Below, piece after piece: positions 4,556 to 29,320 of a stretch of 35,146 bases of DNA; position 1 is the stretch's first letter; each line of letters opens with the position of its first letter. Location of the stretch: IMG/VR virus record IMGVR_UViG_2909309443_000004. One strand, written 5' to 3'. A program made the translations under genes and the position numbers. The notes below the pieces were generated by a model, which was not told the DNA's origin, ran no database searches, and worked only from the letters and a program-made list of their open reading frames with translations. The stretch is from a virus (Duplodnaviria > Heunggongvirae > Uroviricota > Caudoviricetes).

Positions 4556-4851
4556 GCCGCGTCCCTCTGCCCATCAAGCTGATCAGCCAGATCCCAGCGC
4601 GCGATAATTGCCATTGCCTCGCGCCGGTAGGCATCCATCAGTTCTTCGAACTCAGGGCTGTCTTTAGCTGCTTCCAGCACTTCCTGGCGAACTCCTTTGC
4701 CTGTTACAACGTCGAAAGTTGAGGCCAGTTGATGAAGCCGGATGGTCTCAATCAGTTCAACTTGTCGGTCATATAGCTGTTCTGACAGGCGGTAGTCCTT
4801 GTCGAATGCCAGCATGATTTTTTGAAGATTTTTCTGCTGATTAACGTTCAT
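4552..4851 (-). CDS. Hypothetical early protein (~99 aa)
   Basis: Track ORF 4552..4866; probable start MNVNQQ at 4851 preceded by GGGAGGG Shine-Dalgarno; no recognised domain. Confidence 0.45.
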   Translation of the reverse strand: MNVNQQKNLQKIMLAFDKDYRLSEQLYDRQVELIETIRLHQLASTFDVVTGKGVRQEVLEAAKDSPEFEELMDAYRREAMAIIARWDLADQLDGQRDAA

Positions 4852-4853
4852 TA

Positions 4854-5006
4854 TCAGCCCTCCCATATCTCGTTATCGTTGGCCACATCGCGAGCTTCTT
4901 TGCTGACGAAAGCCCACTTAATGCCTTCCTGTAAGGTGCGGAACTTCCAGCTCATGAATCCGCATGCAGTAACGCAGTACCAACCGTTGATGATTTTCCA
5001 CTGCAT
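4854..5006 (-). CDS. Small Trp/Cys-containing protein (50 aa), first gene of leftward early operon
   Basis: Manually translated minus-strand ORF MQWKIINGWYCVTACGFMSWKFRTLQEGIKWAFVSKEARDVANDNEIWEG; below 60-aa track cutoff; lies immediately downstream of the two OL operator palindromes. Confidence 0.3.
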   Translation of the reverse strand: MQWKIINGWYCVTACGFMSWKFRTLQEGIKWAFVSKEARDVANDNEIWEG

Positions 5007-5025
5007 AACTTGTTACCTCGGTCTG

Positions 5026-5102
5026 TTACCGTTGAGGTAATAATTATGCTTATTTGGTTTGGTGTCAATAGATATGAGTTAAAAAAATTACCCGTAAGGT
5101 AA
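5026..5102. promoter_or_regulatory. OL-like operator pair: TTACCGTTGAGGTAA (5026-5040) and TTACCCGTAAGGTAA (5088-5102)
   Basis: Two perfect 5-bp inverted half-sites separated by 5 bp, located between repressor gene terminator and start of leftward early operon. Confidence 0.55.
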
Positions 5103-5111
5103 TCTATCTGG

Positions 5112-5137
5112 CAATAAAAAAGCCGCCATGAGGCGGC
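5112..5137 (-). terminator. Rho-independent terminator downstream of repressor gene
   Basis: Minus-strand hairpin GCCGCC-tcat-GGCGGC followed by TTTTTTATT, 20-45 nt after repressor stop codon. Confidence 0.55.
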
Positions 5138-5159
5138 TTACTTGCTGAAAACTATAGTT

Positions 5160-5744
5160 TTATTGTTTGCTTTTTTCGTTCTGGTTGATGACAAATTCAA
5201 TGTAACTTTCGATCTTTGCCTTCTCTGTTTCAGGTAACAATGCGTAGCGCGAGCGGTCATAGTTGATAGTCGCGGGGTCGTGCGGGTGAATCAGTAATTC
5301 ATATCCGTGACGCCCAAATGCGGATGCAACATTCTCCAGGGTGGAAATGGAAACGCTGACCTCATTGTTTAACAGGCGGCTGATTGTTACCTGGGCGACG
5401 CCGGATGCGCGGTGAAGTTTTCCCTGCGTTGAAAGGTCGCGGCTTTCGCTCATCCAGCGTTCCAGGTTGTGAGCCGCCAGTTGACCAATGTCGCTTGGTC
5501 CGACAGGCTGAAAACCTTCCTGAGAAAGCGAGCGATCGATATCAAGCCAGTTACGGGGTTTATTGGCGGCAGCTTCAATTTTTCGCGCAACCTGGTCGCC
5601 GATAACCTTCTTGCCAAGAGCCCAGCGGTTTACCAGATTTGCCTGAGTTCCAAGTTTTTCAGCCATCCGCGTCTGAACACCATTGAATTCACGGTCGATC
5701 AAGTCGTTGAGATTTTGCCTGCGGACGTCCTGGATACTTTTCAT
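5160..5744 (-). CDS. Prophage repressor (CI-like), HTH protein without recognisable S24 peptidase domain
   Basis: 194-aa ORF divergent from Cro-like gene; two HTH-like segments (GVQTRMAEKLGTQANLVNRWALGKK and LHRASGVAQVTISRLLNNEVSVSISTLENVASAF); no Ala-Gly/Ser-Lys LexA-like cleavage module evident. Confidence 0.7.
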   Translation of the reverse strand: MKSIQDVRRQNLNDLIDREFNGVQTRMAEKLGTQANLVNRWALGKKVIGDQVARKIEAAANKPRNWLDIDRSLSQEGFQPVGPSDIGQLAAHNLERWMSESRDLSTQGKLHRASGVAQVTISRLLNNEVSVSISTLENVASAFGRHGYELLIHPHDPATINYDRSRYALLPETEKAKIESYIEFVINQNEKSKQ

Positions 5745-5799
5745 TTTCTGGAAAATCGCCTCATATCTGAATCAGAAGATGATTCAATTTAAAGCAATA

Positions 5800-5862
5800 T
5801 TACCCAACAGGTAAATGCACCTCATGGGTAACTATCCTTGATTTTTGTTACCTTATAGGTGA
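5800..5862. promoter_or_regulatory. OR-like operator region: TTACCCAACAGGTAA (5800-5814) and TTACCTTATAGGTGA (5848-5862) between divergent repressor and cro-like genes
   Basis: Same palindrome family as OL; intergenic 154-bp region with AT-rich promoter-like hexamers (TTGATT ... TGAATAT). Confidence 0.55.
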
Positions 5863-5898
5863 ATATTTATTATCTGAAATAAATATCAGGCAATAGCT

Positions 5899-6129
5899 AT
5901 GAGCGATAACGGACATTTCGATTTCAAAAAGCACTGGCTTGCACTTACTCCGGATGAGCGTGAAGCCTTCGCACAGGAAGCCGGAACGACGAGTCACTAT
6001 ATCCAGACTCACTTAACAGGTAAGCGCAAAATGCCAGGTAAGGTATTGATGGATGGGCTTTTTAAAGCCTGTAAATCAAGACAATGGCTGCGCTCAAAAG
6101 CAGAACTGGCATACTTCTTCTACTCATGA
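5899..6129 (+). CDS. Cro-like small HTH regulator
   Basis: 76-aa ORF divergent from repressor; HTH-like segment EREAFAQEAGTTSHYIQTHLTGKRKMP. Confidence 0.6.
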   Translation: MSDNGHFDFKKHWLALTPDEREAFAQEAGTTSHYIQTHLTGKRKMPGKVLMDGLFKACKSRQWLRSKAELAYFFYS

Positions 6130-6184
6130 TATCCAGCCACAACCCTCTGTAGACCGCCATCCGGCGGTCTTTTCATATCTATTC

Positions 6185-6199
6185 GTACCTCAAGGGTAA
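6185..6199. promoter_or_regulatory. Operator-like palindrome GTACCTCAAGGGTAA
   Basis: One-mismatch member of TTACC-N5-GGTAA family, 80 bp upstream of the 6280 ATG. Confidence 0.4.
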
Positions 6200-6279
6200 T
6201 AAAAAACCAAATATGGTTGATCTTTTTTTTGTGTCAGCACAAAATAACCGTAATCCCAATACTAATAACAGGGCTTACC

Positions 6280-6480
6280 ATGGAAATCATTACACGTATT
6301 GATGCCGCAAAGCGCGGACTTAAACGCTACTACACCGGAAAAACATGTAAGCACGGACATGACAGTGAACGCTGGGTTTACAACGGACACTGTGTTGAGT
6401 GCACCATGGAATCAAACCGTCGTATCAGGGCAGAGATTAAGCAGATCATGATTAATTCCTCCCCACAACATTCAAGCTGA
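6280..6480 (+). CDS. Small Cys/His-rich protein (possible zinc-binding regulator), cII position
   Basis: Track ORF 6217..6480 (TTG); likely ATG at 6280 (MEIITRIDAAKRGLKRYYTGKTCKHGHDSERWVYNGHCVECT...); C-x-H-x-H ... C-x2-C arrangement. Confidence 0.45.
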   Translation: MEIITRIDAAKRGLKRYYTGKTCKHGHDSERWVYNGHCVECTMESNRRIRAEIKQIMINSSPQHSS

Positions 6481-6495
6481 TAGCGGAGATTAATC

Positions 6496-7311
6496 ATGAG
6501 CAGACATGCAACAGATTGGGCCTGGGAGACAGATCCAGGTAGCTCGTCATTAAAGCTCATACTGCTCTCGATGGCTGACAGAGCCGATGAATATAACCTC
6601 TGCTACCCCAGCATAGAACGCCTCGTTAAAGACACTTGCCTGAATAAAAAAACCGTGCAGGCCGGACTTATATCGCTCATGAAAATGGGGCTTATTTCAG
6701 ATACCGGGGAGAGAAAGGGAGCGACAAAAAGAGTGCGGGTTTTCTCTCTTAATATAACCAAAAACGGGAACATTAAAGGCAACCGAGAGGGGGGCAATGA
6801 ACCCGAAAACGGTAATGTTACCGAAAACGGGAATATACCCAAAAACGGGATGTTGAATGATCCCAAAAACGGGATGTTGAATGATCCCAAAAACGGGATC
6901 CAGAACCAGTCATATAACCAGTCATTTAACCAAGAGAGGGAGAGCAGGACAAAAAACGGGGATTCTGTGCATCATGACCCCGGCGCAAACAACGCCGTGA
7001 TGAATAACTTTGTTCCTCCTGGTGGGCCAGGGCAATTAGGCAAATTTGTCATGCATGAACAATGGCAGCCATCAGATGACTTTCTTCGGAAAAGCTCATT
7101 GCAGGGGATCTACCTGGACAGTCTGCCAACGGCACAGGAACTTGCAGAGTTCAGAATTTACTGGATGGCTGAGGGTAAGGCATACCATCAGGCACAGTGG
7201 GAGCAGAAGCTGGCAAGGCGGCTGCAGATTAGCAGACAGAAGCAATCAACATTACCTGATAACAACGTTCCGCACTGGAACAGCCCTGAAGCATGGGAGG
7301 ATTTCTTGTGA
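6496..7311 (+). CDS. Replication initiator, lambda O-like N-terminal HTH domain with DnaT-like C-terminal region
   Basis: 271-aa ORF; N-terminus (..LKLILLSMADRADEYNLCYPSIERLVKDTCLNKKTVQAGLISLMKMGLI..) typical of phage replisome organiser HTH; contains iteron array in linker. Confidence 0.7.
   Translation: MSRHATDWAWETDPGSSSLKLILLSMADRADEYNLCYPSIERLVKDTCLNKKTVQAGLISLMKMGLISDTGERKGATKRVRVFSLNITKNGNIKGNREGGNEPENGNVTENGNIPKNGMLNDPKNGMLNDPKNGIQNQSYNQSFNQERESRTKNGDSVHHDPGANNAVMNNFVPPGGPGQLGKFVMHEQWQPSDDFLRKSSLQGIYLDSLPTAQELAEFRIYWMAEGKAYHQAQWEQKLARRLQISRQKQSTLPDNNVPHWNSPEAWEDFL
6757..6903. repeat. Iteron array (putative phage origin of replication) inside initiator gene: ~6 copies of CCAAAAACGGGA-like unit, including an exact 24-bp tandem duplication
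   Basis: Direct repeats accaaaaacgggaacatt / cccgaaaacggtaatgtt / accgaaaacgggaatata / cccaaaaacgggatgttgaatgat (x2) / cccaaaaacgggatcc; encode KNGN/ENGN peptide repeats. Confidence 0.65.
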
Positions 7312-8130: not shown

Positions 8131-8207
8131 TTACCTGGAAGGTAATAAAATGTTCTAATCTCTATTGATTTCATGTCTTATGTGGTTTTTAATTACCTAA
8201 GGGGTAA
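8131..8207. promoter_or_regulatory. Operator pair TTACCTGGAAGGTAA (8131-8145) and TTACCTAAGGGGTAA (8193-8207) upstream of 8211 ORF
   Basis: Two perfect TTACC-N5-GGTAA palindromes in 117-bp intergenic region after P-like gene. Confidence 0.5.
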
Positions 8208-8210
8208 ATC

Positions 8211-8523
8211 ATGAGAAAACAGATACAGGCTCTTGGTCGACTCAAAACAGGCCAGATGAACAAAACAGAATCTGCGTATTGCCAGCACCTTGAGCTGCGT
8301 AAACGTGCAGGGGAAATCGCCTGGTATCGATTCACCATCAGTGCCTGCAACACCAGAAGTTCAGGCAGCACCACAGGAGCAGGATGCCGCCGTTGTTGAT
8401 GCCCGCGACGAAGAAACTCGTCGCCGTCGCGCTGCTGCTGGTCGTAGTTCTACGCTGCTTACCGGTTCTCAGGGCGACACATCAACCGCTAATACCAGCG
8501 GTAAAACGCTGCTTGGTCAGTAA
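8211..8523 (+). pseudogene. Probable gene remnant / deletion scar: DUF1064-like N-terminal fragment (8211-~8330) joined out of frame to a Gly/Ser/Arg-rich C-terminal ORF (8290-8523)
   Basis: 8211 ORF begins MRKQIQALGRLKTGQMNKTESAYCQHLELRKRAGEIAWYRF (resembles N-terminus of phage DUF1064 proteins) then loses protein-like sequence; second frame ends ...RRRRAAAGRSSTLLTGSQGDTSTANTSGKTLLGQ; no intact product. Confidence 0.3.
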
Positions 8524-11208: not shown

Positions 11209-12085
11209 GAGAGGAGATAACAATGGCTGTTAAAGGCTTAACTGCGCTAACGCTGGCTGACTGGGGTAAGCGCGTCGATCCAAATGGGAAAGTCGATAAG
11301 ATTATCGAGCTTCTCAATCAAACTAACCCAATTCTTCAGGATATGCCTTTTGTTGAAGGAAACCTTCCTACCGGACACCGAACCACCATTCGTTCTGGTT
11401 TACCTTCTGCTACCTGGCGTTTGCTGAACTATGGCGTACAGCCAAGCAAATCAACCACAGTGCAGGTCACCGATTCCATTGGCATGCTGGAAACCTATGC
11501 TGAAGTCGATAAGTCTCTGGCTGATCTGAACGGTAATACTGCCGAATTCCGTCTGTCTGAAGACCGAGCATTTATTGAAGCGATGAATCAGGCGATGGCG
11601 CAGACACTGTTTTACGGTGATTCCAGCGTTAACCCTCAGCAGTTTATGGGACTGTCCTCCCGCTATTCCAGCCTGTCTGCGGGTAATGCTCAGAACATCA
11701 TTGATGCTGGTGGCACGGGTACAGATAACACTTCAATCTGGTTAGTGGTGTGGGGCGAAAACACCGTGCATGGCATCTTCCCGAAAGGACAGAAGGCTGG
11801 CATTCAGATGGAAGATAAAGGCCAGGTGACACTGGAAGATGCTAATGGCGGCAAGTACGAAGGTTATCGTACCCATTATAAGTGGGACAACGGGCTGACA
11901 TTACGTGACTGGCGCTATGTAGTTCGTATCGCAAACATCGATGTCAGCAATCTTTCAGAACCTTCCTCTGCCGCAAATATTGCGAAGTTGATGGTTAAAG
12001 GTAAGCGTAAACTGACCGCCGTATGTAGCCATCAGACGAGAATTGGTAACTTAGACGCCCATCTGATATAGACGGACATCTAAGT

Positions 12086-12511
12086 ATGGAATTACAGGAC
12101 TGGCGAAAAGAACCTCGTAAAAACTATTCGAATGAATTCAAACTTCGTATGGTGGAACTGGCATCACAACCTGGAGCTTGTGTTGCACAGATTGCACGTG
12201 AAAATGGCGTCAATGATAATGTTATTTTCAAATGGCTCAGGCTCTGGCAGAACGAAGGGCGTGTTTCGCGGCGTCTTCCGGTAACGACCTCTTCTGACAC
12301 TGGCGTTGAATTATTACCTGTAGAAATAACGCCGGATGAGCAGAAAGAACCTGTGGCGGCCATTGCGCCGTCTTTATCCACTTCCACTCAGACCAGAGTC
12401 AGTGCCAGTTCCTGCAAGGTGGAATTCCGTCACGGTAACATGACGCTGGAAAATCCATCGCCAGAGCTGCTCACAGTGTTGATCCGTGAACTGACCGGGA
12501 GGGGAAGATGA
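12086..12511 (+). CDS. IS66-family accessory protein TnpA (orfA)
   Basis: 141-aa ORF, HTH-like N-terminus (SNEFKLRMVELASQPGACVAQIARENGVNDNVIFKWLRLW); first ORF of IS66-type element. Confidence 0.8.
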   Translation: MELQDWRKEPRKNYSNEFKLRMVELASQPGACVAQIARENGVNDNVIFKWLRLWQNEGRVSRRLPVTTSSDTGVELLPVEITPDEQKEPVAAIAPSLSTSTQTRVSASSCKVEFRHGNMTLENPSPELLTVLIRELTGRGR

Positions 12512-12858
12512 TCTCACTCCCATCAGGTACCCGTATCTGGCTCGTTGCCGGCGTTACCGATATGCGTAAATCCTTCAACGGACTGGGAGAACAGGTACAA
12601 CATGTGCTGAATGATAATCCCTTCTCCGGTCACCTGTTTATCTTCCGTGGCCGACGGGGTGACACCGTCAAAATTCTTTGGGCTGATGCTGATGGTCTGT
12701 GCCTGTTCACCAAACGCCTGGAGGAAGGCCAGTTTATCTGGCCTGCGGTACGTGACGGCAAGGTATCCATTACCCGCTCGCAACTGGCAATGCTCCTCGA
12801 TAAGCTGGACTGGCGTCAGCCAAAAACATCCAGCCGTAACTCACTGACAATGTTGTAA
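12508..12858 (+). CDS. IS66-family accessory protein TnpB (orfB)
   Basis: 116-aa ORF MISLPSGTRIWLVAGVTDMRKSFNGL..., overlapping orfA stop (ATGA), typical IS66 Orf2. Confidence 0.8.
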   Translation: MISLPSGTRIWLVAGVTDMRKSFNGLGEQVQHVLNDNPFSGHLFIFRGRRGDTVKILWADADGLCLFTKRLEEGQFIWPAVRDGKVSITRSQLAMLLDKLDWRQPKTSSRNSLTML

Positions 12859-12888
12859 AAAACTCCTGACCGCATTATAAAAACGGTC

Positions 12889-14502
12889 ATGAGTCAGAAA
12901 TACCTCATTCGCATCGCAGAGCTGGAAAGGTTGCTCTCTGAGCAGGCTGAAGCCCTCCGTCAGAAAGACCAGCAACTGAGTCTGGTTGAAGAGACGGAAG
13001 CCTTCCTGCGCTCTGCACTGACACGTGCCGAAGAAAAGATCGAAGAAGATGAACGGGAAATAGAACATCTGCGGGCTCAGATAGAAAAACTGCGCCGGAT
13101 GCTGTTCGGTACCCGTTCTGAAAAACTGCGTCGTGAAGTTGAACTGGCTGAGGCTCTGCTGAAACAACGTGAACAGGACAGCGATCGTTACAGTGGGCGG
13201 GAAGACGATCCTCAGGTTCCCCGCCAGTTGCGACAGTCGCGCCATCGTCGTCCGTTACCGGCACACCTTCCCCGTGAAATACACCGCCTGGAGCCAGAAG
13301 AAAGCTGTTGCCCGGAGTGTGGCGGTGAGCTGGATTATCTGGGGGAAGTCAGCGCTGAACAGCTGGAACTGGTGAGCAGTGCCCTGAAAGTGATCCGCAC
13401 AGAACGGGTAAAAAAAGCCTGTACAAAATGTGACTGTATTGTTGAAGCACCGGCGCCGTCCCGCCCGATAGAGCGTGGTATCGCGGGCCCCGGATTACTT
13501 GCCCGCGTGTTAACGGGAAAATACTGCGAACATCTGCCACTGTATCGTCAGAGTGAAATCTTTGCCCGCCAGGGTGTCGAACTGAGCCGGGCCTTACTCT
13601 CCAACTGGGTTGACGCGTGCTGCCAGTTAATGACACCGGTGAATGATGCCCTGTACCGTTATGTAATGAACACCCGCAAGATTCACACTGATGACACACC
13701 GGTAAAGGTACTGGCACCGGGTCAGAAAAAGGCGAAAACAGGGCGTATCTGGACGTATGTCCGGGATGATCGCAATGTGGGTTCGTCATCTCCTCCAGCG
13801 GTCTGGTTCGCGTACTCGCCGAACCGGCAGGGGAAACACCCGGAGCAACACCTCCGCCCCTTCCGGGGTATCCTGCAGGCGGATGCGTTCACAGGTTACG
13901 ACAGGTTGTTCAGTGCAGAACGTGAAGGTGGTGCACTGACAGAAGTTGCGTGCTGGGCCCATGCCCGGCGAAAAATCCACGATGTATACATCAGCAGCAA
14001 AAGTGCGACGGCAGAAGAAGCACTGAAGCGAATCAGTGAACTGTACGCCATCGAGGATGAAATACGGGGATTACCGGAGTCAGAGCGTCTTGCCGTCAGG
14101 CAGCAGCGAAGCAAAGTGTTACTGACGTCGCTGCATGAATGGATGGTGGAGAAGAATGGTACGCTGTCGAAAAAATCCAGACTGGGCGAAGCGTTCAGCT
14201 ATGTACTGAATCAGTGGGATGCCCTCTGTTATTACAGTGATGACGGTCTGGCGGAGGCGGATAATAATGCTGCGGAAAGAGCGCTTCGTGCAGTCTGTCT
14301 CGGAAAGAAAAACTTTATGTTCTTTGGCAGCGATCACGGCGGCGAGCGTGGAGCACTGTTGTACGGGCTGATCGGCACCTGCCGTCTGAACGGTATCGAT
14401 CCGGAAGCGTATCTGCGCCATATCCTGAGCGTACTGCCGGAATGGCCTTCCAACCGAGTTGATGAACTCCTGCCATGGAACGTAGTACTCACCAATAAAT
14501 AA
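12889..14502 (+). CDS. IS66-family transposase (orfC)
   Basis: 537-aa ORF with N-terminal coiled coil/leucine zipper, CxxC zinc motifs (CCPECGGEL...CTKCDC) and DDE-type core. Confidence 0.85.
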   Translation: MSQKYLIRIAELERLLSEQAEALRQKDQQLSLVEETEAFLRSALTRAEEKIEEDEREIEHLRAQIEKLRRMLFGTRSEKLRREVELAEALLKQREQDSDRYSGREDDPQVPRQLRQSRHRRPLPAHLPREIHRLEPEESCCPECGGELDYLGEVSAEQLELVSSALKVIRTERVKKACTKCDCIVEAPAPSRPIERGIAGPGLLARVLTGKYCEHLPLYRQSEIFARQGVELSRALLSNWVDACCQLMTPVNDALYRYVMNTRKIHTDDTPVKVLAPGQKKAKTGRIWTYVRDDRNVGSSSPPAVWFAYSPNRQGKHPEQHLRPFRGILQADAFTGYDRLFSAEREGGALTEVACWAHARRKIHDVYISSKSATAEEALKRISELYAIEDEIRGLPESERLAVRQQRSKVLLTSLHEWMVEKNGTLSKKSRLGEAFSYVLNQWDALCYYSDDGLAEADNNAAERALRAVCLGKKNFMFFGSDHGGERGALLYGLIGTCRLNGIDPEAYLRHILSVLPEWPSNRVDELLPWNVVLTNK

Positions 14503-14799
14503 GCGTCAATACGGTGCTCCGTTGACGCTTACGTTAAAGCACTGCATCGCATTCCAAACCGTGGCATGGGTCGCCCGGTGTTCTACATGAACCGCACTGT
14601 AGGCCAGGCTCTTGATCTGCAATCTCTGGAGAAAACATCTCTGGCTATCAGCGTAAAAGAGACTGAAGGCGAGTGGTGGACTTCATTCCGTGGTGTACCA
14701 ATCCGTGAAACTGATGCGCTTCTGGAAACAGAAGCCCGCGTGGTGTAACGCCTGTTATTAACCTGTGGGTCGTAACAGACCCACTAATGGAGAAAGAAG

Positions 14800-16562: not shown

Positions 16563-18733
16563 TGGCTATCAGTTGGATCCAGCCCAGCTTTGCCGGTGGT
16601 GAGATTGGACCGTCGTTGTACGGACGTATCGACATGGCGAAGTACCAGGTGGCATTGCGCAAGTGCGATAACTTTATCGTGCGGCAGTATGGCGGCGTTG
16701 AGAATCGACCTGGTACGCGTTTTGTCGGTGCCGCCAAATACCCAAATCGGAAATGCCGCCTGATACCGTTCCAGTTCTCGACGGTTCAGACTTATGCTCT
16801 GGAGTTCGGACACCAGTACATGCGCGTTATCAAAGATGGTGCGTTGGTGCTGAACAGCAGCAATGTTATTTATGAAATTGCCACGCCATATACTGAAGCC
16901 GATCTGTTCCGAATTAAATTCACGCAAAGCGCAGACGTGCTTACGCTGGTTCATCCGGCATACCCGCCGAAAGAGTTGCGTCGCTATGCGCATGACAACT
17001 GGCAACTGGTTGATGTGGTAACGAAGAACGGACCATTTGAAGATATCAATATTGACGAGTCAGTGACGGTTTATGCCAGCGCCAGCACCGGGACAATTAC
17101 GTTAACGGCAAGCGCCTCTATTTTTGGCGCGGAGCAGGTAGGCAAATTGTTCTATCTGGAACAGCCTGCAGTGGATTCAGTGCCGGTATGGGAAACCAGT
17201 AAGAGTACGTCGATTGGCGATATTCGCCGTGCAGACAGTAACTACTATCGCGCCGTTACAGCAGGCAAAACAGGTACTTTGCGCCCTTCGCATACAGAAG
17301 GCACATCATGGGATGGCTGGGGCGGATCCGGTGATGATGATACTGGCATTGAGTGGGAATATCTGCACAGTGGTTTTGGCATTGCCCGTATCACTGCTGC
17401 AAATGGAACTACTGCAACTGCCGAGGTGATTTCCTATATCCCTTCGCAGGTAGTTGGCGAGGATAATGCCAGCTATAAATGGGCTAAATATGCCTGGAAC
17501 AGTGTTAATGGTTATCCTGGCACTGTTGTTTATTATCAACAACGTCTTTACTTCGCCGCATCGACTGCGTTCCCTCAGACTATCTGGGCTAGCCGTACCG
17601 GGGATTATAAGGATTTTGGCAAAAGCAATCCTACGCAGGATGACGACAGAATTATCTACACCTATGCCGGGCGTCAGGTTAATGAGATCCGCCACCTGAT
17701 TGATGTCGGTTCGCTGGTGGCACTGACTTCCGGAGGTGAGTACGTCATCACCGGCGACCAGAACAAAGTGTTAACCCCATCATCATTTGCATTCAGCTCT
17801 CAGGGATCAAATGGCTCGAGCAATGTCCCACCAATTGCCGTGGCGAATATTGCTCTGTTCGTCCAGGAGAAAGGCAGTGTTGTCCGTGATCTGGCCTACT
17901 CATTCGATGTTGACGGCTATCAGGGGAACGACCTGACCATCCTTGCCAATCATCTTTTTCAGAAGCACAGCATTGTTGACTGGTGCTTCTCTATTGTCCC
18001 TTACTCCAGCGCCTTCTGCATTCGTGATGACGGTAAATTACTGGTGATGACCTATTTGCGTGATCAGCAGGTTTTTGCATGGGCACCACAATCCAGTACC
18101 GGAAAATATGAAAGCACATGCAGTATCAGCGAAGGAAATGAAGATGCGGTGTATTTCGTTGTTAACCGAACCGTTAACGGGCAAACAGTGAGATACATCG
18201 AGCGACTGTCCAGCCGTTTATTTACCAGCGATGAAGATGCTTTCTTTGTTGATTCTGGCCTTAGCTATGATGGAAGAAATACGTCTGACAGAACGATGAC
18301 CATCACTGGTGGTTCTGGCGAATGGGATTACCGCGCGGAATATACAATCAGTATTTCTGGTGGTGCGTACTTCACCAGTAGTGATGTCGGTGCGCAACTA
18401 CAGTTCCCTTATACCGGCGCTGATTTATCTACCGGTAACGCGCTGGATATATTTGGTGACACTGCTCAGTTTGGCGCTCTTGATTCGCTGACGACGGTGA
18501 ATAACGCGCAACGCGAGGCTTACGGTTATCAGGTTCAGGCTGCCAACTATAAAGCAGAAGCCAGTTCAGCCCGTAAACAGGGGAATGTGGGAGCAGCAAC
18601 AACATTGCTCACTGCGCCTCTGAAGGCATACGGTGCGTACCAGATGTTTGGTGGGACGTGGAGTCCGTTTACTCAAAGCACCCCTGCGCCAATCGGGGCA
18701 GCAGCAGGAACCAGATTACCCGGAGGATTATAA
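16562..18733 (+). CDS. Tail tubular protein B / nozzle (T7 gp12-like)
   Basis: 723-aa ORF, start overlaps previous stop; size, position and beta-rich sequence consistent with podovirus gp12. Confidence 0.6.
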   Translation: MAISWIQPSFAGGEIGPSLYGRIDMAKYQVALRKCDNFIVRQYGGVENRPGTRFVGAAKYPNRKCRLIPFQFSTVQTYALEFGHQYMRVIKDGALVLNSSNVIYEIATPYTEADLFRIKFTQSADVLTLVHPAYPPKELRRYAHDNWQLVDVVTKNGPFEDINIDESVTVYASASTGTITLTASASIFGAEQVGKLFYLEQPAVDSVPVWETSKSTSIGDIRRADSNYYRAVTAGKTGTLRPSHTEGTSWDGWGGSGDDDTGIEWEYLHSGFGIARITAANGTTATAEVISYIPSQVVGEDNASYKWAKYAWNSVNGYPGTVVYYQQRLYFAASTAFPQTIWASRTGDYKDFGKSNPTQDDDRIIYTYAGRQVNEIRHLIDVGSLVALTSGGEYVITGDQNKVLTPSSFAFSSQGSNGSSNVPPIAVANIALFVQEKGSVVRDLAYSFDVDGYQGNDLTILANHLFQKHSIVDWCFSIVPYSSAFCIRDDGKLLVMTYLRDQQVFAWAPQSSTGKYESTCSISEGNEDAVYFVVNRTVNGQTVRYIERLSSRLFTSDEDAFFVDSGLSYDGRNTSDRTMTITGGSGEWDYRAEYTISISGGAYFTSSDVGAQLQFPYTGADLSTGNALDIFGDTAQFGALDSLTTVNNAQREAYGYQVQAANYKAEASSARKQGNVGAATTLLTAPLKAYGAYQMFGGTWSPFTQSTPAPIGAAAGTRLPGGL

Positions 18734-26304: not shown

Positions 26305-26748
26305 TTATTCTTCTTCTTCATCATTAAAAAGCGGATTGTTGTTTCCATCTGATGAAAGGAAAGGTATGTGTTCTCTTGAAAATCCAACAATGACAATTTC
26401 ATTATCATTTTTTGCATAATGAATGCATTCATTAGAATGCATTCCGCCAGGGTTGAAATTTAAGTTAATGGTATAATTCTTAAATGTGTTTGGATACCAT
26501 GTTGGCCCACAATGATAATGCCAATAATTCTCTTGCTCATAATTGTCTGAGCCTGGAATTTTATCATGGTTATCATCAACCCACGAGGGCTTGTTTTTTC
26601 CAACAAGCGCCCTTCCATTGGCAACATCCTCTAAAAACCTTTGTATGATTTTTATTTCATCATCAGTAAGGAAAGGTCCGTCTACAGCGAAAGGGGTGTT
26701 GCTTTCCCCATGTAGAAAACTATTAGATATTCTAATGTTAAACTTCAA
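26305..26748 (-). CDS. Unknown AT-rich moron protein with acidic C-terminal tail (147 aa)
   Basis: TTG start 7 nt after AGGAG; markedly lower GC than surroundings; His/Cys cluster (YWHYHCGP...HSNECIHY) and terminal FNDEEEE; no recognised family. Confidence 0.55.
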   Translation of the reverse strand: MKFNIRISNSFLHGESNTPFAVDGPFLTDDEIKIIQRFLEDVANGRALVGKNKPSWVDDNHDKIPGSDNYEQENYWHYHCGPTWYPNTFKNYTINLNFNPGGMHSNECIHYAKNDNEIVIVGFSREHIPFLSSDGNNNPLFNDEEEE

Positions 26749-26768
26749 GGAAAACTCCTGATGTGCTT

Positions 26769-26936
26769 CTATTTGGAGCGAAATGCCGCCTTGAAGTCGC
26801 TAAAAGATGTTCCTGTCTGGTAAACCATATCCTTGTCGCGCTCTTTGCTTGCGCGACCAAGCATAACTTTTCCAATGACATCCCAGCATTGCTTGGCTTG
26901 TTCATTGTGCTGAGTACGATTTTTCAACGCTGTCAT
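26769..26936 (-). CDS. Small basic protein (55 aa), first gene of two-gene operon with 26305..26748
   Basis: Manually translated MTALKNRTQHNEQAKQCWDVIGKVMLGRASKERDKDMVYQTGTSFSDFKAAFRSK; GGAGG 6 nt upstream of ATG; operator palindrome 12 bp upstream. Confidence 0.4.
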   Translation of the reverse strand: MTALKNRTQHNEQAKQCWDVIGKVMLGRASKERDKDMVYQTGTSFSDFKAAFRSK

Positions 26937-26948
26937 ATCGCGCCTCCT

Positions 26949-26963
26949 TTACCTTTAAGGTAA
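26949..26963. promoter_or_regulatory. Operator palindrome TTACCTTTAAGGTAA overlapping promoter of 26936<-operon
   Basis: Perfect TTACC-N5-GGTAA; upstream (minus-strand sense) TTGGCG ... TAATAT hexamers at -35/-10-like spacing. Confidence 0.5.
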
Positions 26964-27029: not shown

Positions 27030-27749
27030 TCAGAAGAACCCTGCCTTGTCGTTGATGTACTCCGCGTGGGTCTGGATATCACGCAGGCATTTGCTCACAC
27101 CGACGATGTAGCAGAACATGGTGGTCAGTTCCGCCGCCGCGCCCGATACGTCATGCCCGTCTTCCTGTAACTGGTTCAGCAAATTCATCAGCAGTGAGTT
27201 CTCCGTCAGGCCGAGAACACCAGACGGTGAATGAATCAGGCTACGGTAGCCGGGCTTCAGTGGGGCGCTGTAGGTTTTGTTCTCTATCTTCATTGCCTGC
27301 ATCACTGCTGATGCTGTGGCGTTGGCTACCTGGTCGGCAACCATCTTTATGCGTTCTTCTTGCGGGAGCGAGTTTTTAATGTAACTTCCGGTGCGGCGGA
27401 TCTGAGGAAGAACCTCACCTGTAACCCATTTACGAAAGCGGTATGGGATAGTGCCTGGTGTCACCGCATCGCGGCAGCGGAGGATCAGTGTGTAGAGGCC
27501 TGACTCGTTGATAATATTGGTTTCGCCTTGACGGCCTAAGTTAAATTTAGCCCTTTCATCATCATCAAGAGATTTTATTGACATAGTGGGGTTTGTCAGT
27601 TGAAGAGCTTTAATAACGTCTTTGGCAACAAACCAAGGATTAATCGCAAATCCAACTCTCCTCAGAGTTATAACGCTCAAACGCTTTACACATACTTTGT
27701 GTTGGTGCTGGAGGGCGTTCAAGGGCAGCCATGACTTGCTCCCAAACAT
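27030..27749 (-). CDS. Bro-N-like antirepressor-type protein with C-terminal domain paralogous to 28868..29125 product
   Basis: Track ORF 27030..27758; Bro-N-like segment GFAINPWFVAKDVIKAL...SGLYTLILRCRDAVTPGTIPYRFRKWVTGEVLPQIRRTG; C-terminal ~90 aa share clear similarity with ORF 28868..29143. Confidence 0.6.
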   Translation of the reverse strand: MFGSKSWLPLNALQHQHKVCVKRLSVITLRRVGFAINPWFVAKDVIKALQLTNPTMSIKSLDDDERAKFNLGRQGETNIINESGLYTLILRCRDAVTPGTIPYRFRKWVTGEVLPQIRRTGSYIKNSLPQEERIKMVADQVANATASAVMQAMKIENKTYSAPLKPGYRSLIHSPSGVLGLTENSLLMNLLNQLQEDGHDVSGAAAELTTMFCYIVGVSKCLRDIQTHAEYINDKAGFF

Positions 27750-27924
27750 CCTCTTCAACGATCAAGCGGCGATGTTCATTAATAACTGTTTCAGCTCTAA
27801 AAGTCGTAGACTCCATTACAAATTGAGATACGGACACTTTAGAAATAACAGCAGCTTCTTCGATACGGCGCTTCGCAGCTTCGGGCAGACGAAACTCGAA
27901 CCGCTCCTTTCTTACTGCGTTCAT
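27640..27924 (-). CDS. DUF1778-like ribbon-helix-helix protein (TacA-antitoxin-like / Arc-like regulator)
   Basis: Track ORF 27640..27948 (GTG); ATG 27924 lies 5 nt after AGGAG; sequence MNAVRKERFEFRLPEAAKRRIEEAAVISKVSVSQFVMESTTFRAETVINEHRRLIVEEDVWEQVMAALERPPAP fits DUF1778 RHH pattern; no GNAT toxin partner present. Confidence 0.6.
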   Translation of the reverse strand: MNAVRKERFEFRLPEAAKRRIEEAAVISKVSVSQFVMESTTFRAETVINEHRRLIVEEDVWEQVMAALERPPAPTQSMCKAFERYNSEESWICD

Positions 27925-27988: not shown

Positions 27989-28096
27989 TTACCGTACAGG
28001 TAATGATAAGCGCGAAGAAATATTAAAATCAACCTTATTTGGTTGATTGCGTTTAACGCTTGATCACCTGAAAGCAAGATATTACCTTTAAGGTAA
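27989..28096. promoter_or_regulatory. Operator pair TTACCGTACAGGTAA (27989-28003) and TTACCTTTAAGGTAA (28082-28096) in divergent promoter region
   Basis: Two perfect palindromes between divergent RHH/Bro-N operon and membrane zinc-ribbon gene. Confidence 0.5.
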
Positions 28097-28116: not shown

Positions 28117-28845
28117 ATGGAAGTTTTCTGGATAGTTGTTGGTGTGGTTGCGGTGATTATTTACGTTATCAACCAGAACAAGACTAAGATCTCTGATCGT
28201 ACGGTCGTTAATCATAACAAAACGATAAAGACCGAAGATGGGGAGATAACGATTAATCGTACACAGGTGATAGAACACACCTCTACTCAGTTTCAAAAAA
28301 CTGGAGGTAATGCGCCTAATATTTCCGCACCTCCTGCTTATGATAGTGCGGTAATCCAGACATATTATAAACAGCAGGAGTTAGCAAAAGAGAGGCAACT
28401 GATTCAGCCAAAGCCGTTTACAACTGAGATTCCACCTGGAGTGTCAACGCGTCCGGCATATCATGGAAGATTCCCTGGTGATGACATATCGTCTCAGTCA
28501 TCTAAAAAAGCACCTCAGGCAATATCAGAGCCAGCAAGAATACCTTCTGTATCGCCGCAAAAAGAAGAATCAGCTAACAGAGTTTCAAGTGGTAGCAAGC
28601 AGTGCTTGCGATGCAGAATAAACCTTCCATATGAAAAATTCAGGAAATCGTCAAAAAATCCAGATGGATTGACTAAATGGTGTGCAAGGTGTCTCGATGG
28701 CCCAAAGAATACACGCCATATGAAGTGGTGCCCAATTTGTAATGTCCGCAGAAAACGAACCAGCTTTTACCCTAATAATCAAAATGCGGACGGCTTAATG
28801 GCATGGTGCAAAACGTGCTGGGATGAGCACAAAGCGAAACGATAG
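28117..28845 (+). CDS. Membrane-anchored protein with duplicated C-terminal zinc-ribbon motifs, function unknown
   Basis: 242-aa ORF; N-terminal TM helix (FWIVVGVVAVIIYVI), long low-complexity linker, then two repeats CLRCRINLPYEKFRKSSKNPDGLTKWCARC and CPICNVRRKRTSFYPNNQNADGLMAWCKTC. Confidence 0.6.
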   Translation: MEVFWIVVGVVAVIIYVINQNKTKISDRTVVNHNKTIKTEDGEITINRTQVIEHTSTQFQKTGGNAPNISAPPAYDSAVIQTYYKQQELAKERQLIQPKPFTTEIPPGVSTRPAYHGRFPGDDISSQSSKKAPQAISEPARIPSVSPQKEESANRVSSGSKQCLRCRINLPYEKFRKSSKNPDGLTKWCARCLDGPKNTRHMKWCPICNVRRKRTSFYPNNQNADGLMAWCKTCWDEHKAKR

Positions 28846-28867
28846 GCCGCTCTTGCGGCCTTTAAAT

Positions 28868-29125
28868 TTACCGGGTTTGTTTTCGTAATTGTTCGGCACA
28901 ATAGTCGAGATGTGTTTGCAGATCCCGCATAGACATCTGTGAGCTGGTGACGTAGTTAATCAGTGCAGTCAGTTCGGCAAGTGGGCCATCGACATTAAAT
29001 CCATCCTTATCGAGATCCCGGAGTAATTTCATCAAGTGCGATCCCTCCACCAGTGACCTGACGCCTCCCGGCGTGTGAATCCTTTCGGTAAATCCGTCTT
29101 CCAGTGGATAGTGATACCGCTGCAT
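28868..29125 (-). CDS. Small protein paralogous to C-terminal domain of Bro-N-like protein
   Basis: Track ORF 28868..29143 (TTG); ATG at 29125 with GGAG RBS; ..LMKLLRDLDKDGFNVDGPLAELTALINYVTSSQMSMRDLQTHLDY.. aligns with ..LMNLLNQLQEDGHDVSGAAAELTTMFCYIVGVSKCLRDIQTHAEY.. of 27030 gene. Confidence 0.55.
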   Translation of the reverse strand: MQRYHYPLEDGFTERIHTPGGVRSLVEGSHLMKLLRDLDKDGFNVDGPLAELTALINYVTSSQMSMRDLQTHLDYCAEQLRKQTR

Positions 29126-29201
29126 CTTATCTTCTCCATGCAATAACTGTATATTTATACAGTATCAAATAATTTGTTTGCTATCCAGCACGTTTTGCAA
29201 A

Positions 29202-29216
29202 TTACCCGAAAGGTAA
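29202..29216. promoter_or_regulatory. Operator palindrome TTACCCGAAAGGTAA between 29125<- gene and tailspike
   Basis: Perfect TTACC-N5-GGTAA in 195-bp divergent intergenic region. Confidence 0.45.
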
Positions 29217-29320
29217 TATCTATTCATATTCACAGCCTTTCTATCCATATGTGGTTTTTCAGGTAATAGAATAACCAGATATGCGGCGCAACGGGTGCTG
29301 CGACTATCTGGAGATTTAAC

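Follow-up and report, generated by a model that had tools for sequence, protein, structure and literature searches.

A predicted SPC32H-type repressor-antirepressor switch with a LexA box, and a second Ant-domain gene, in a defective phiV10-like prophage of Escherichia coli

The window analysed here, the 35,146 nucleotides (nt) of IMG/VR virus record IMGVR_UViG_2909309443_000004, is a defective prophage of the phiV10/epsilon15-like type (Uetakevirus), located beside guaA in Escherichia coli, and the subject of this work is its repressor gene rep together with the genes and sites that may control or inactivate the repressor. Uetakeviruses are epsilon15-like podoviruses; positions 4800-6500, around rep, share 98.3% identity with Escherichia phage phiV10 and are near many other E. 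coli Uetakevirus genomes. An initial annotation of this DNA had placed a repressor of 194 amino acids (aa) at 5160-5744 on the minus strand, where the list of open reading frames (ORFs) indeed contains it. That annotation recognised one antirepressor-like gene and no host LexA site, and was left with the question of what triggers derepression. The genes and sites on which the argument turns are the following.

5160-5744, minus strand: rep, encoding a prophage repressor of 194 aa that belongs to the SPC32H Rep family, from the ORF list and homology.
28868-29125, minus strand: ant, 85-aa small antirepressor and SPC32H Ant orthologue, from its PDB match and identity.
29147-29162: LexA (SOS) box CTGTATATTTATACAG, an exact CTGT-N8-ACAG located 21 nt upstream of the ant ATG.
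27030-27749, minus strand: Bro-N::Ant fusion gene, from a Bro-N Pfam match and an Ant-like C-terminus.
27640-27924, minus strand: gene for a TacA/DUF1778-type ribbon-helix-helix (RHH) protein of 94 aa, the first gene of the Bro-N::Ant unit.

When Rep was compared with all PDB chains (phmmer), it matched 5D50 chain A, the 'Repressor' of Salmonella phage SPC32H, over aa 1-190 (E=3.5e-42), and its C-terminal half matched 5D4Z chain A (SPC32H Rep 92-198, E=3.6e-20). Overall identity between the two repressors is 44%; by domain it is highest for DNA binding (54%), lower for the C-terminal part (48%) and lowest for the middle (34%). The segment with NLVNRW in the putative DNA-binding domain is conserved in both. 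Identity to the repressors of phiV10 and ZX5 reaches 99.5%. According to the account given in PMC9986798 (citing Kim et al. 2016), SPC32H Rep consists of an N-terminal DNA-binding domain, a middle dimerisation domain and a p53-like C-terminal tetramerisation domain, 'CAD', which binds Ant. When aligned with it, the window Rep divides into a helix-turn-helix (HTH) DNA-binding domain at the N-terminus (~aa 1-70), a dimerisation domain of HTH fold in the middle (~aa 89-150) and, at ~aa 151-190, a C-terminal tetramerisation/Ant-binding domain. The two HTH-like segments of the initial annotation are thus both detectable, as a Pfam HTH_3 match at aa 106-147 (E=1.2e-9) and a weaker YdaS_toxin-family HTH-type match at aa 21-61; however, the second of them corresponds in the alignment to the SPC32H dimerisation domain, which is not described as a second DNA-binding unit. 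The absence of an S24 module, also claimed there, is borne out by both checks made: Peptidase_S24 was unmatched in the Pfam search of Rep even at E<=1, and neither Ala-Gly nor Cys-Gly, the usual LexA/CI self-cleavage site, occurs anywhere in the protein. Rep therefore does not show the lambda CI/LexA-type combination of a C-terminal S24 domain, a Ser-Lys dyad and an Ala-Gly site. Given its full-length homology to SPC32H Rep and the lack of an S24 signature, Rep is predicted to be non-cleavable; the earlier proposal that it is inactivated by an antirepressor and not by RecA-mediated cleavage is supported.

The gene first put forward is not the only antirepressor candidate. The Bro-N gene at 27030-27749 had been taken as the sole antirepressor-like gene, but the small ORF at 28868-29125 encodes the true SPC32H Ant orthologue: its product matched 5D50 chain E, 'Anti-repressor protein' (E=4.8e-46), SPC32H Ant being the sole solved protein matched, and it is 87% identical to SPC32H Ant and 96-97% identical to the small Ant of phiV10 and ZX5. 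The mechanical ORF call reaches 29143; an ATG at 29125 is preceded by the ribosome-binding site GGAG (29134-29137), 8 nt upstream. The gene is divergent from the tailspike gene, the same position as that of ant in SPC32H. Its surroundings contain these further features.

28844-28861: bidirectional terminator (hairpin), downstream of ant.
29182-29187, minus strand: putative -35 hexamer of ant, TGGATA, within the conserved block TGCTGGATAG and 17 nt upstream of TACTGT.
29202-29216: operator-like palindrome in the gap that separates ant from the tailspike gene; its centre lies ~57 nt upstream of the putative ant transcription start.

The initial annotation had also failed to find a host LexA site, whereas the box before ant is a perfect CTGT-N8-ACAG; 18 of its 20 positions agree with the 20-nt E. 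coli consensus TACTGTATATATATACAGTA, and only 0.003 exact occurrences are expected in the 195-nt gap between ant and the tailspike gene. We aligned this gap from seven phages of Escherichia, Salmonella, Enterobacter and Klebsiella. The position of the LexA box is conserved in all seven, where it forms one of four conserved islands amid diverged sequence, the others being the operator ATTACC-N5-GGTAA, the block TGCTGGATAG and a tailspike-start block. Conservation likewise points to TGGATA-17-TACTGT as the probable ant promoter, in which case the box overlaps the -10 hexamer (TACTGT, 29164-29159) and the transcription start, and LexA would repress ant through a near-consensus box lying over its promoter. 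The deposited sequences of SPC32H and SPC32N show two differences in a 601-bp (base pair) stretch, one of which lies in the homologous LexA box, where G is replaced by T and CTGT becomes CTTT; a LexA-box mutation in SPC32N reportedly gives constitutive Ant. With the small ant gene and the box at 29147-29162, both overlooked before, the paradox of derepression is gone.

Two other LexA-like sites were discarded: the one at 29220-29235 (1 mismatch) is not conserved in the seven-phage alignment, and an exact CTGT-N8-ACAG at 14763 has a GC-rich spacer. The conserved block beside the tailspike start (29240-29275, alignment columns ~64-100) reads TTCTATTACC..AAACC.TATATG.AT on the ant-sense strand and carries a lone TTACC half-site; its plus strand, GGTAATAGAAT, has a -10-like hexamer TAGAAT, and the block may be a tailspike promoter. 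Ant is 84-87% identical across the window, SPC32H and epsilon15, compared with 44% for Rep overall and 48% for its Ant-binding C-terminal domain (window and SPC32H), a difference that may reflect mosaic inheritance or an Ant acting across immunity types.

Rep would act through the palindrome TTACC-N5-GGTAA. The window contains 11 such sites with at most 1 mismatch, whereas 0.62 are expected and none of 100 shuffles reached 11. By the ORF lists, all 11 lie in gaps between genes. A crude map from greedy ORF calling put two of them inside ORFs, both spurious and on the opposite strand. The same palindrome is enriched in SPC32H (18 sites, 0.52 expected) and in epsilon15 (15 sites, 0.61 expected). 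The sites and the promoters predicted around them, in addition to the site at 29202-29216, are listed here.

5026-5040 and 5088-5102: OL operators, 62 bp apart centre to centre, just downstream of rep.
5068 to 5040, minus strand: predicted leftward promoter PL, TTGACA-17-AATTAT, whose -10 abuts operator 5026-5040.
5120-5139, minus strand: terminator-like hairpin just 3' of rep.
5800-5814, 5817-5831 (degenerate, 2 mismatches) and 5848-5862: OR operators between rep and the cro-like gene, at spacings of 17 and 31 bp.
5845-5873, plus strand: predicted rightward promoter PR, TTGTTA-17-TATTAT, with operator 5848-5862 within its spacer.
5899-6129, plus strand: cro-like gene (76 aa), divergent from rep and matching PHROG phrog_35 'transcriptional repressor' (E=8.7e-13).
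6185-6199: single operator-like site (1 mismatch), after the terminator of the cro-like gene.
8131-8145 and 8193-8207: operator pair, 62 bp apart, downstream of the replication genes.
26949-26963: operator 13 nt upstream of 26769-26936, a leftward gene for 55 aa, and downstream of the stop codon of Bro-N::Ant.
27989-28003: operator abutted by the -10 of the predicted RHH/Bro-N::Ant promoter.
28032 to 28003, minus strand: predicted leftward promoter TTGATT-18-TATCAT, upstream of RHH/Bro-N::Ant, whose -10 abuts operator 27989-28003.
28082-28096: operator 21 nt upstream of a rightward 242-aa gene (28117-28845).

It should be noted that promoter-like matches per scanned region were no more numerous than in shuffled sequence, so that hexamer matches by themselves carry little weight. 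The layout of the palindromes is more telling. The OR sites of SPC32H are arranged alike (34390/34407/34437), and the spacing of 17 and 30-31 bp is conserved across the genomes compared. The shared layout places several sites just 3' of rep, of which the window has two; this OL pair recurs in SPC32H (33604/33666) and epsilon15 (32555/32617), and the pair after the replication genes in SPC32H (35972/36034), epsilon15 (35907/35969) and phiv142-3; at both pairs the centre-to-centre spacing is exactly 62 bp in every genome examined. This suggests that one Rep tetramer, with two DNA-binding pairs, could bridge two palindromes 62 bp apart, an arrangement we propose with the help of PMC9638917. Moreover, the GenBank record of epsilon15 annotates seven palindromes as 'protein_bind: repressor, lysogeny', among them the equivalent of the site at 29202-29216 ('protein_bind repressor'), and its repressor note cites HHpred 5d50_A. 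The latter site, centred ~57 nt upstream of the putative ant start, lies where it would not block the core promoter of ant; a divergent tailspike promoter may be its target, or it may act as an auxiliary site.

We infer with considerable strength that these palindromes are the Rep operators. They might otherwise be a motif that goes with promoters, or bind some other regulator such as a late activator or the Cro-like protein by itself, since several of them precede accessory or late-type genes (e.g., terS in epsilon15 and SPC32H), which is unusual for a lambda-type repressor, and since their assignment to Rep comes from sequence and annotation. We consider this improbable: the palindromes form a tripartite OR on one side of rep and a multi-site OL on the other, the pattern to be expected for an immunity repressor; half-sites of 5+5 in a palindrome suit an HTH dimer, and the sites paired at 62 bp suit a tetramer that contains two DNA-binding pairs; the half-sites are conserved between the window and SPC32H, as is the NLVNRW segment; and the authors of the epsilon15 record annotated the palindromes as repressor sites.

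The operators reported for the Bro-N gene are present, with sites at 26949, 27989 and 28082 flanking it, and an operator also precedes the equivalent cluster in ZX5 (L004 3808-3822), phiV10, Tyrion and a Klebsiella phage. The start of the gene can be set at the ATG 27749, at the TTG equivalent to 27680, which PGAP uses in the sister genome E. coli O6:H16 2011EL-1370-2, or at a TTG further upstream (27758). The Bro-N domain (E=6.7e-18) covers aa 34-118 of the 242-aa ORF read from TTG 27758 (~aa 31-115 in ATG numbering). The C-terminus (aa 158-234, ATG numbering) can be aligned with SPC32H Ant over residues 3-79 of the latter (E=1.2e-13). It shows 44% identity to the small Ant encoded in the window and keeps 21 positions that are invariant across the Ant family; its segment 'DGHDVSGAAAEL' is identical to that of the Klebsiella-type Ant, and the product has no match to the KilAC/ANT Pfam domain. 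The fusion is not rare, as the PHROG 'anti-repressor' families phrog_130 and phrog_1760 cover the same architecture. One Ant-domain gene is found in SPC32H and in epsilon15, and two or three in several E. coli and Enterobacter relatives.

Over its whole length Bro-N::Ant shares 85% identity with ORF4 of vB_EcoP_ZX5; the last 156 aa are identical, and the N-terminal ~80 aa differ. Given this, the region 27640-27758, where the RHH and Bro-N::Ant ORFs overlap (by ~110 nt with ATG 27749 and by 41 nt with the start used in the sister genome), looks like a recombination joint. In the ZX5 study, lysogens fell from 1e9 to 1e6 per ml, and rep mRNA by 75%, when ORF4 was overexpressed, and overexpression of the repressor abolished free phage. 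The RHH product matches PF08681 (E=2.8e-19) and is thus of the TacA1/DUF1778 and not of the Arc/Mnt type. Its gene is not kept at this position in relatives, an 'ash' gene standing there in ZX5; in the phage collection the RHH-encoding DNA matched only TL-2011b, and the phiV10 match is limited to the 3' part of the Bro-N gene. We rejected the RHH protein as the antitoxin of a TacA-TacT pair, in which a DUF1778 RHH gene is followed by a GNAT toxin gene: there is no GNAT partner, and the downstream gene is Bro-N::Ant.

These observations bear on whether Bro-N::Ant could be the primary inducer, under RHH control as in P22 immI (Mnt/Arc-Ant), with the small ant in a minor role. The RHH gene does lie directly upstream of the Bro-N::Ant gene, and ZX5 ORF4, which is nearly identical to Bro-N::Ant, moves its phage toward lysis when overexpressed. 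We nevertheless think this has little chance of being right. The RHH/Bro-N operon has no LexA-like box at <=2 mismatches upstream (27924/27749), just as the initial annotation reported, and its predicted promoter abuts a Rep operator, so that it should be off as long as Rep is active, with no evident signal input. SPC32H and epsilon15 use the system with a single Ant-domain match each. The RHH protein, suggested earlier as a candidate trigger, is not conserved at its position and is not needed to explain induction, although it may autoregulate its own operon by analogy with Arc in P22. Bro-N::Ant is more likely a second Ant-domain paralogue that amplifies than one that triggers; it might instead target a different repressor.

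The accessory cassettes between the virion genes and ant (26305-26936 and 28117-28845) each lie behind their own TTACC-N5-GGTAA site. They encode proteins of 55 aa and 147 aa (phrog_8607, phrog_5954) and one of 242 aa (28117-28845) whose C-terminal cysteine-rich repeats match endonuclease VII/Lar-like PHROGs. Such genes would be Rep-repressed rather than lysogenic-conversion genes.

Taken together, the module probably works like the SPC32H Rep-Ant switch, and we put the probability of this at roughly 85%; Bro-N::Ant may add feedback. In the lysogen, Rep would occupy the palindromes that overlap the early promoters on both sides of rep and several accessory cassette promoters, while host LexA would independently hold ant off through the box at 29147-29162. 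Upon DNA damage, RecA-stimulated self-cleavage of LexA would derepress ant, and Ant would be made from a short monocistronic transcript ending at the hairpin 28844-28861. Ant would then bind Rep and strip it off its operators, allowing early leftward and rightward transcription; by analogy with SPC32H, Rep would be released as an Ant-Rep complex and stay uncleaved during the SOS response. As Rep is titrated, the Rep-controlled cassettes would be switched on, including the RHH/Bro-N::Ant operon, whose predicted promoter abuts an operator, and Bro-N::Ant, as a second protein with an Ant domain, could then cause the switch to reinforce itself. What is reported for the homologues agrees with this scheme, insofar as the reviews and studies cited describe it: Rep is uncleaved, Ant binds Rep and ant is under LexA (PMC7380047, PMC9638917, PMC9986798); LexA self-cleavage in these prophages permits the synthesis of Ant, and Ant inhibits the repressor through contact between the two proteins (PMC7380047, citing Kim & Ryu 2013); and tetrameric Ant binds two Rep dimers, breaking the DNA-binding tetramer (PMC9638917). 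A lambda CI/LexA-type Rep undergoing RecA-stimulated self-cleavage through a cryptic catalytic domain, for which we found no support beyond the textbook expectation for SOS-inducible prophages, is effectively refuted by the missing S24 match and cleavage site and by the alignment of the whole C-terminal half of Rep to the dimerisation and p53-like tetramerisation domains of the solved SPC32H Rep(92-198).

Several points weigh against the SPC32H-like switch. Rep is only 44% identical to SPC32H Rep, which makes the Ant-Rep pairing in the window an extrapolation and means that the window Rep may be of a different immunity type. The roles of Rep, Ant and the LexA box in this element are predicted from their sequences, and the operators are identified by computation and GenBank annotation. 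The hexamers of the ant promoter are weak, and the consensus promoter scan did not detect it. The operator upstream of ant lies near -57, off the core promoter. Finally, the prophage is defective, so the switch can no longer yield phage, and a mitomycin C plaque readout on this strain would be uninformative.

The comparison with known systems shows how closely the module follows a published one. SPC32H (Kim & Ryu 2013; Kim et al. 2016; PDB 5D50, 5D4Z) belongs to the same genus and has the same gene positions, a Rep homologous over its full length, a LexA box equally placed upstream of ant, and the same palindromes in the same OR/OL layout. The window thus has the sequence features of this type of switch: full-length Rep homology, no S24 domain, a small Ant (~86 aa in this type) whose gene is divergent from the tailspike gene, and a LexA box at the putative ant promoter. 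It differs from SPC32H, in which the Bro-N::Ant paralogue and the TacA-like RHH gene are absent, by having both of these between ant and the virion genes, and the window copy is a defective prophage.

In phiV10 and ZX5, Rep and the small Ant are nearly identical to those of the window, and the overexpression results reported for ZX5 support the roles of the homologues of its repressor (ORF21) and 'anti-repressor' (ORF4). The accessible text of the ZX5 study mentions neither the small ant gene, which is 'hypothetical' in the GenBank record, nor operator sequences nor a LexA box; upstream of its Bro-N gene ZX5 has 'ash', and the window has the RHH gene there. The epsilon15 repressor, gp38, is accompanied by annotated 17-bp repressor-binding sites (GenBank AY150271.2) that contain the same palindrome and are syntenic with those of the window, i.e., upstream of gp19/ant, three downstream of the repressor gene, and after the replication gene. 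In that record gp19 is labelled hypothetical and the OR sites are unannotated, and the genome is without a Bro-N::Ant paralogue.

The antirepressors of Gifsy, Fels-2 and coliphage 186 (Tum) belong to Sipho/Myoviridae-type prophages. They showed no detectable sequence relationship to the window Ant, the PDB search having matched SPC32H Ant alone, but share the logic of a non-cleavable repressor with a small LexA-controlled inactivator, as outlined in PMC7380047. P22 immI (Mnt, Arc, Ant) likewise has a large antirepressor gene behind a small RHH gene, repressor-silenced in the lysogen. There, however, the Bro-N/AntA antirepressor carries a KilAC/ANT domain and is under Arc/Mnt control, whereas the window has a TacA/DUF1778-type RHH and an SPC32H Ant-like C-terminus; the maintenance repressor of Bro-N::Ant appears to be Rep itself, acting via a Rep operator.

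The switch is therefore already known, being an orthologue of a published and structurally solved one with operators annotated in the sister genome epsilon15. The modest new remainder is Bro-N::Ant, absent from the model phage; our analysis suggests that it is a Rep-controlled second antirepressor providing positive feedback, and, if it binds Rep, it adds a feedback layer beyond the studied model phage SPC32H. The inspected records of phiV10, ZX5, epsilon15 and E. coli (RefSeq) call the product of the small ant gene a 'hypothetical protein'. A junction probe over parts of two phage genes was found in ~10% of complete E. coli genomes (532/5426). Given these labels and this prevalence, annotating ant and its SOS box would improve the prediction of SOS-inducible prophages.

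More tentatively, and with less than even odds, phiV10-type Uetakeviruses could have a two-tier circuit in which a LexA-gated Ant is the trigger, a Rep-operator-gated Bro-N::Ant serves as a latch or as a cross-inducer of other prophages, and a Rep tetramer bridges the 62-bp pairs. If so, Bro-N::Ant would come on only after Rep falls and would sequester more Rep, forming an irreversible latch; alternatively, it would hit the repressors of other resident prophages and cross-induce them.

As for the state of the prophage, its regulatory module is intact. The features that document its integration and decay are these.

1-1251: tyrosine integrase gene, at the window start.
12001-14532: IS66-family element of 2.5 kb, inside the major capsid gene.

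In the sister genome, the same element lies immediately after guaA and is followed by yfgI/yfgH; with the integrase at its start, the window is thus an integrated prophage. Deletions and insertion were determined with phage phiv142-3 as the reference. Relative to it, 6.2 kb are absent at a junction near 8333 (within 8200-8480): the early-right operon has lost its late part and a small pre-portal gene its 5' end, and both terminase genes and tRNA-Arg are gone. The junction occurs at 100% identity in 16 complete E. coli genomes, with O6:H16 strains among the top hits. The prophage is defective owing to the deleted terminase genes and the interrupted capsid gene. A scan of the whole window against Rfam gave no match. 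The IS66-family element has the ends GTAAGCG.../...CGCTTAC and a target duplication of ~8 bp, GGTTAAAG, and its ORFs of 141, 116 and 537 aa match the Pfam families HTH_Tnp_1, TnpB_IS66 and DDE_Tnp_IS66. A further 1.3 kb are absent at ~18412-18424, at the short microhomology TACCGGxGCTGAT, and this deletion appears to fuse two large virion-protein genes. The sister genome is without the IS66-family insertion but has IS100 in its tailspike gene.

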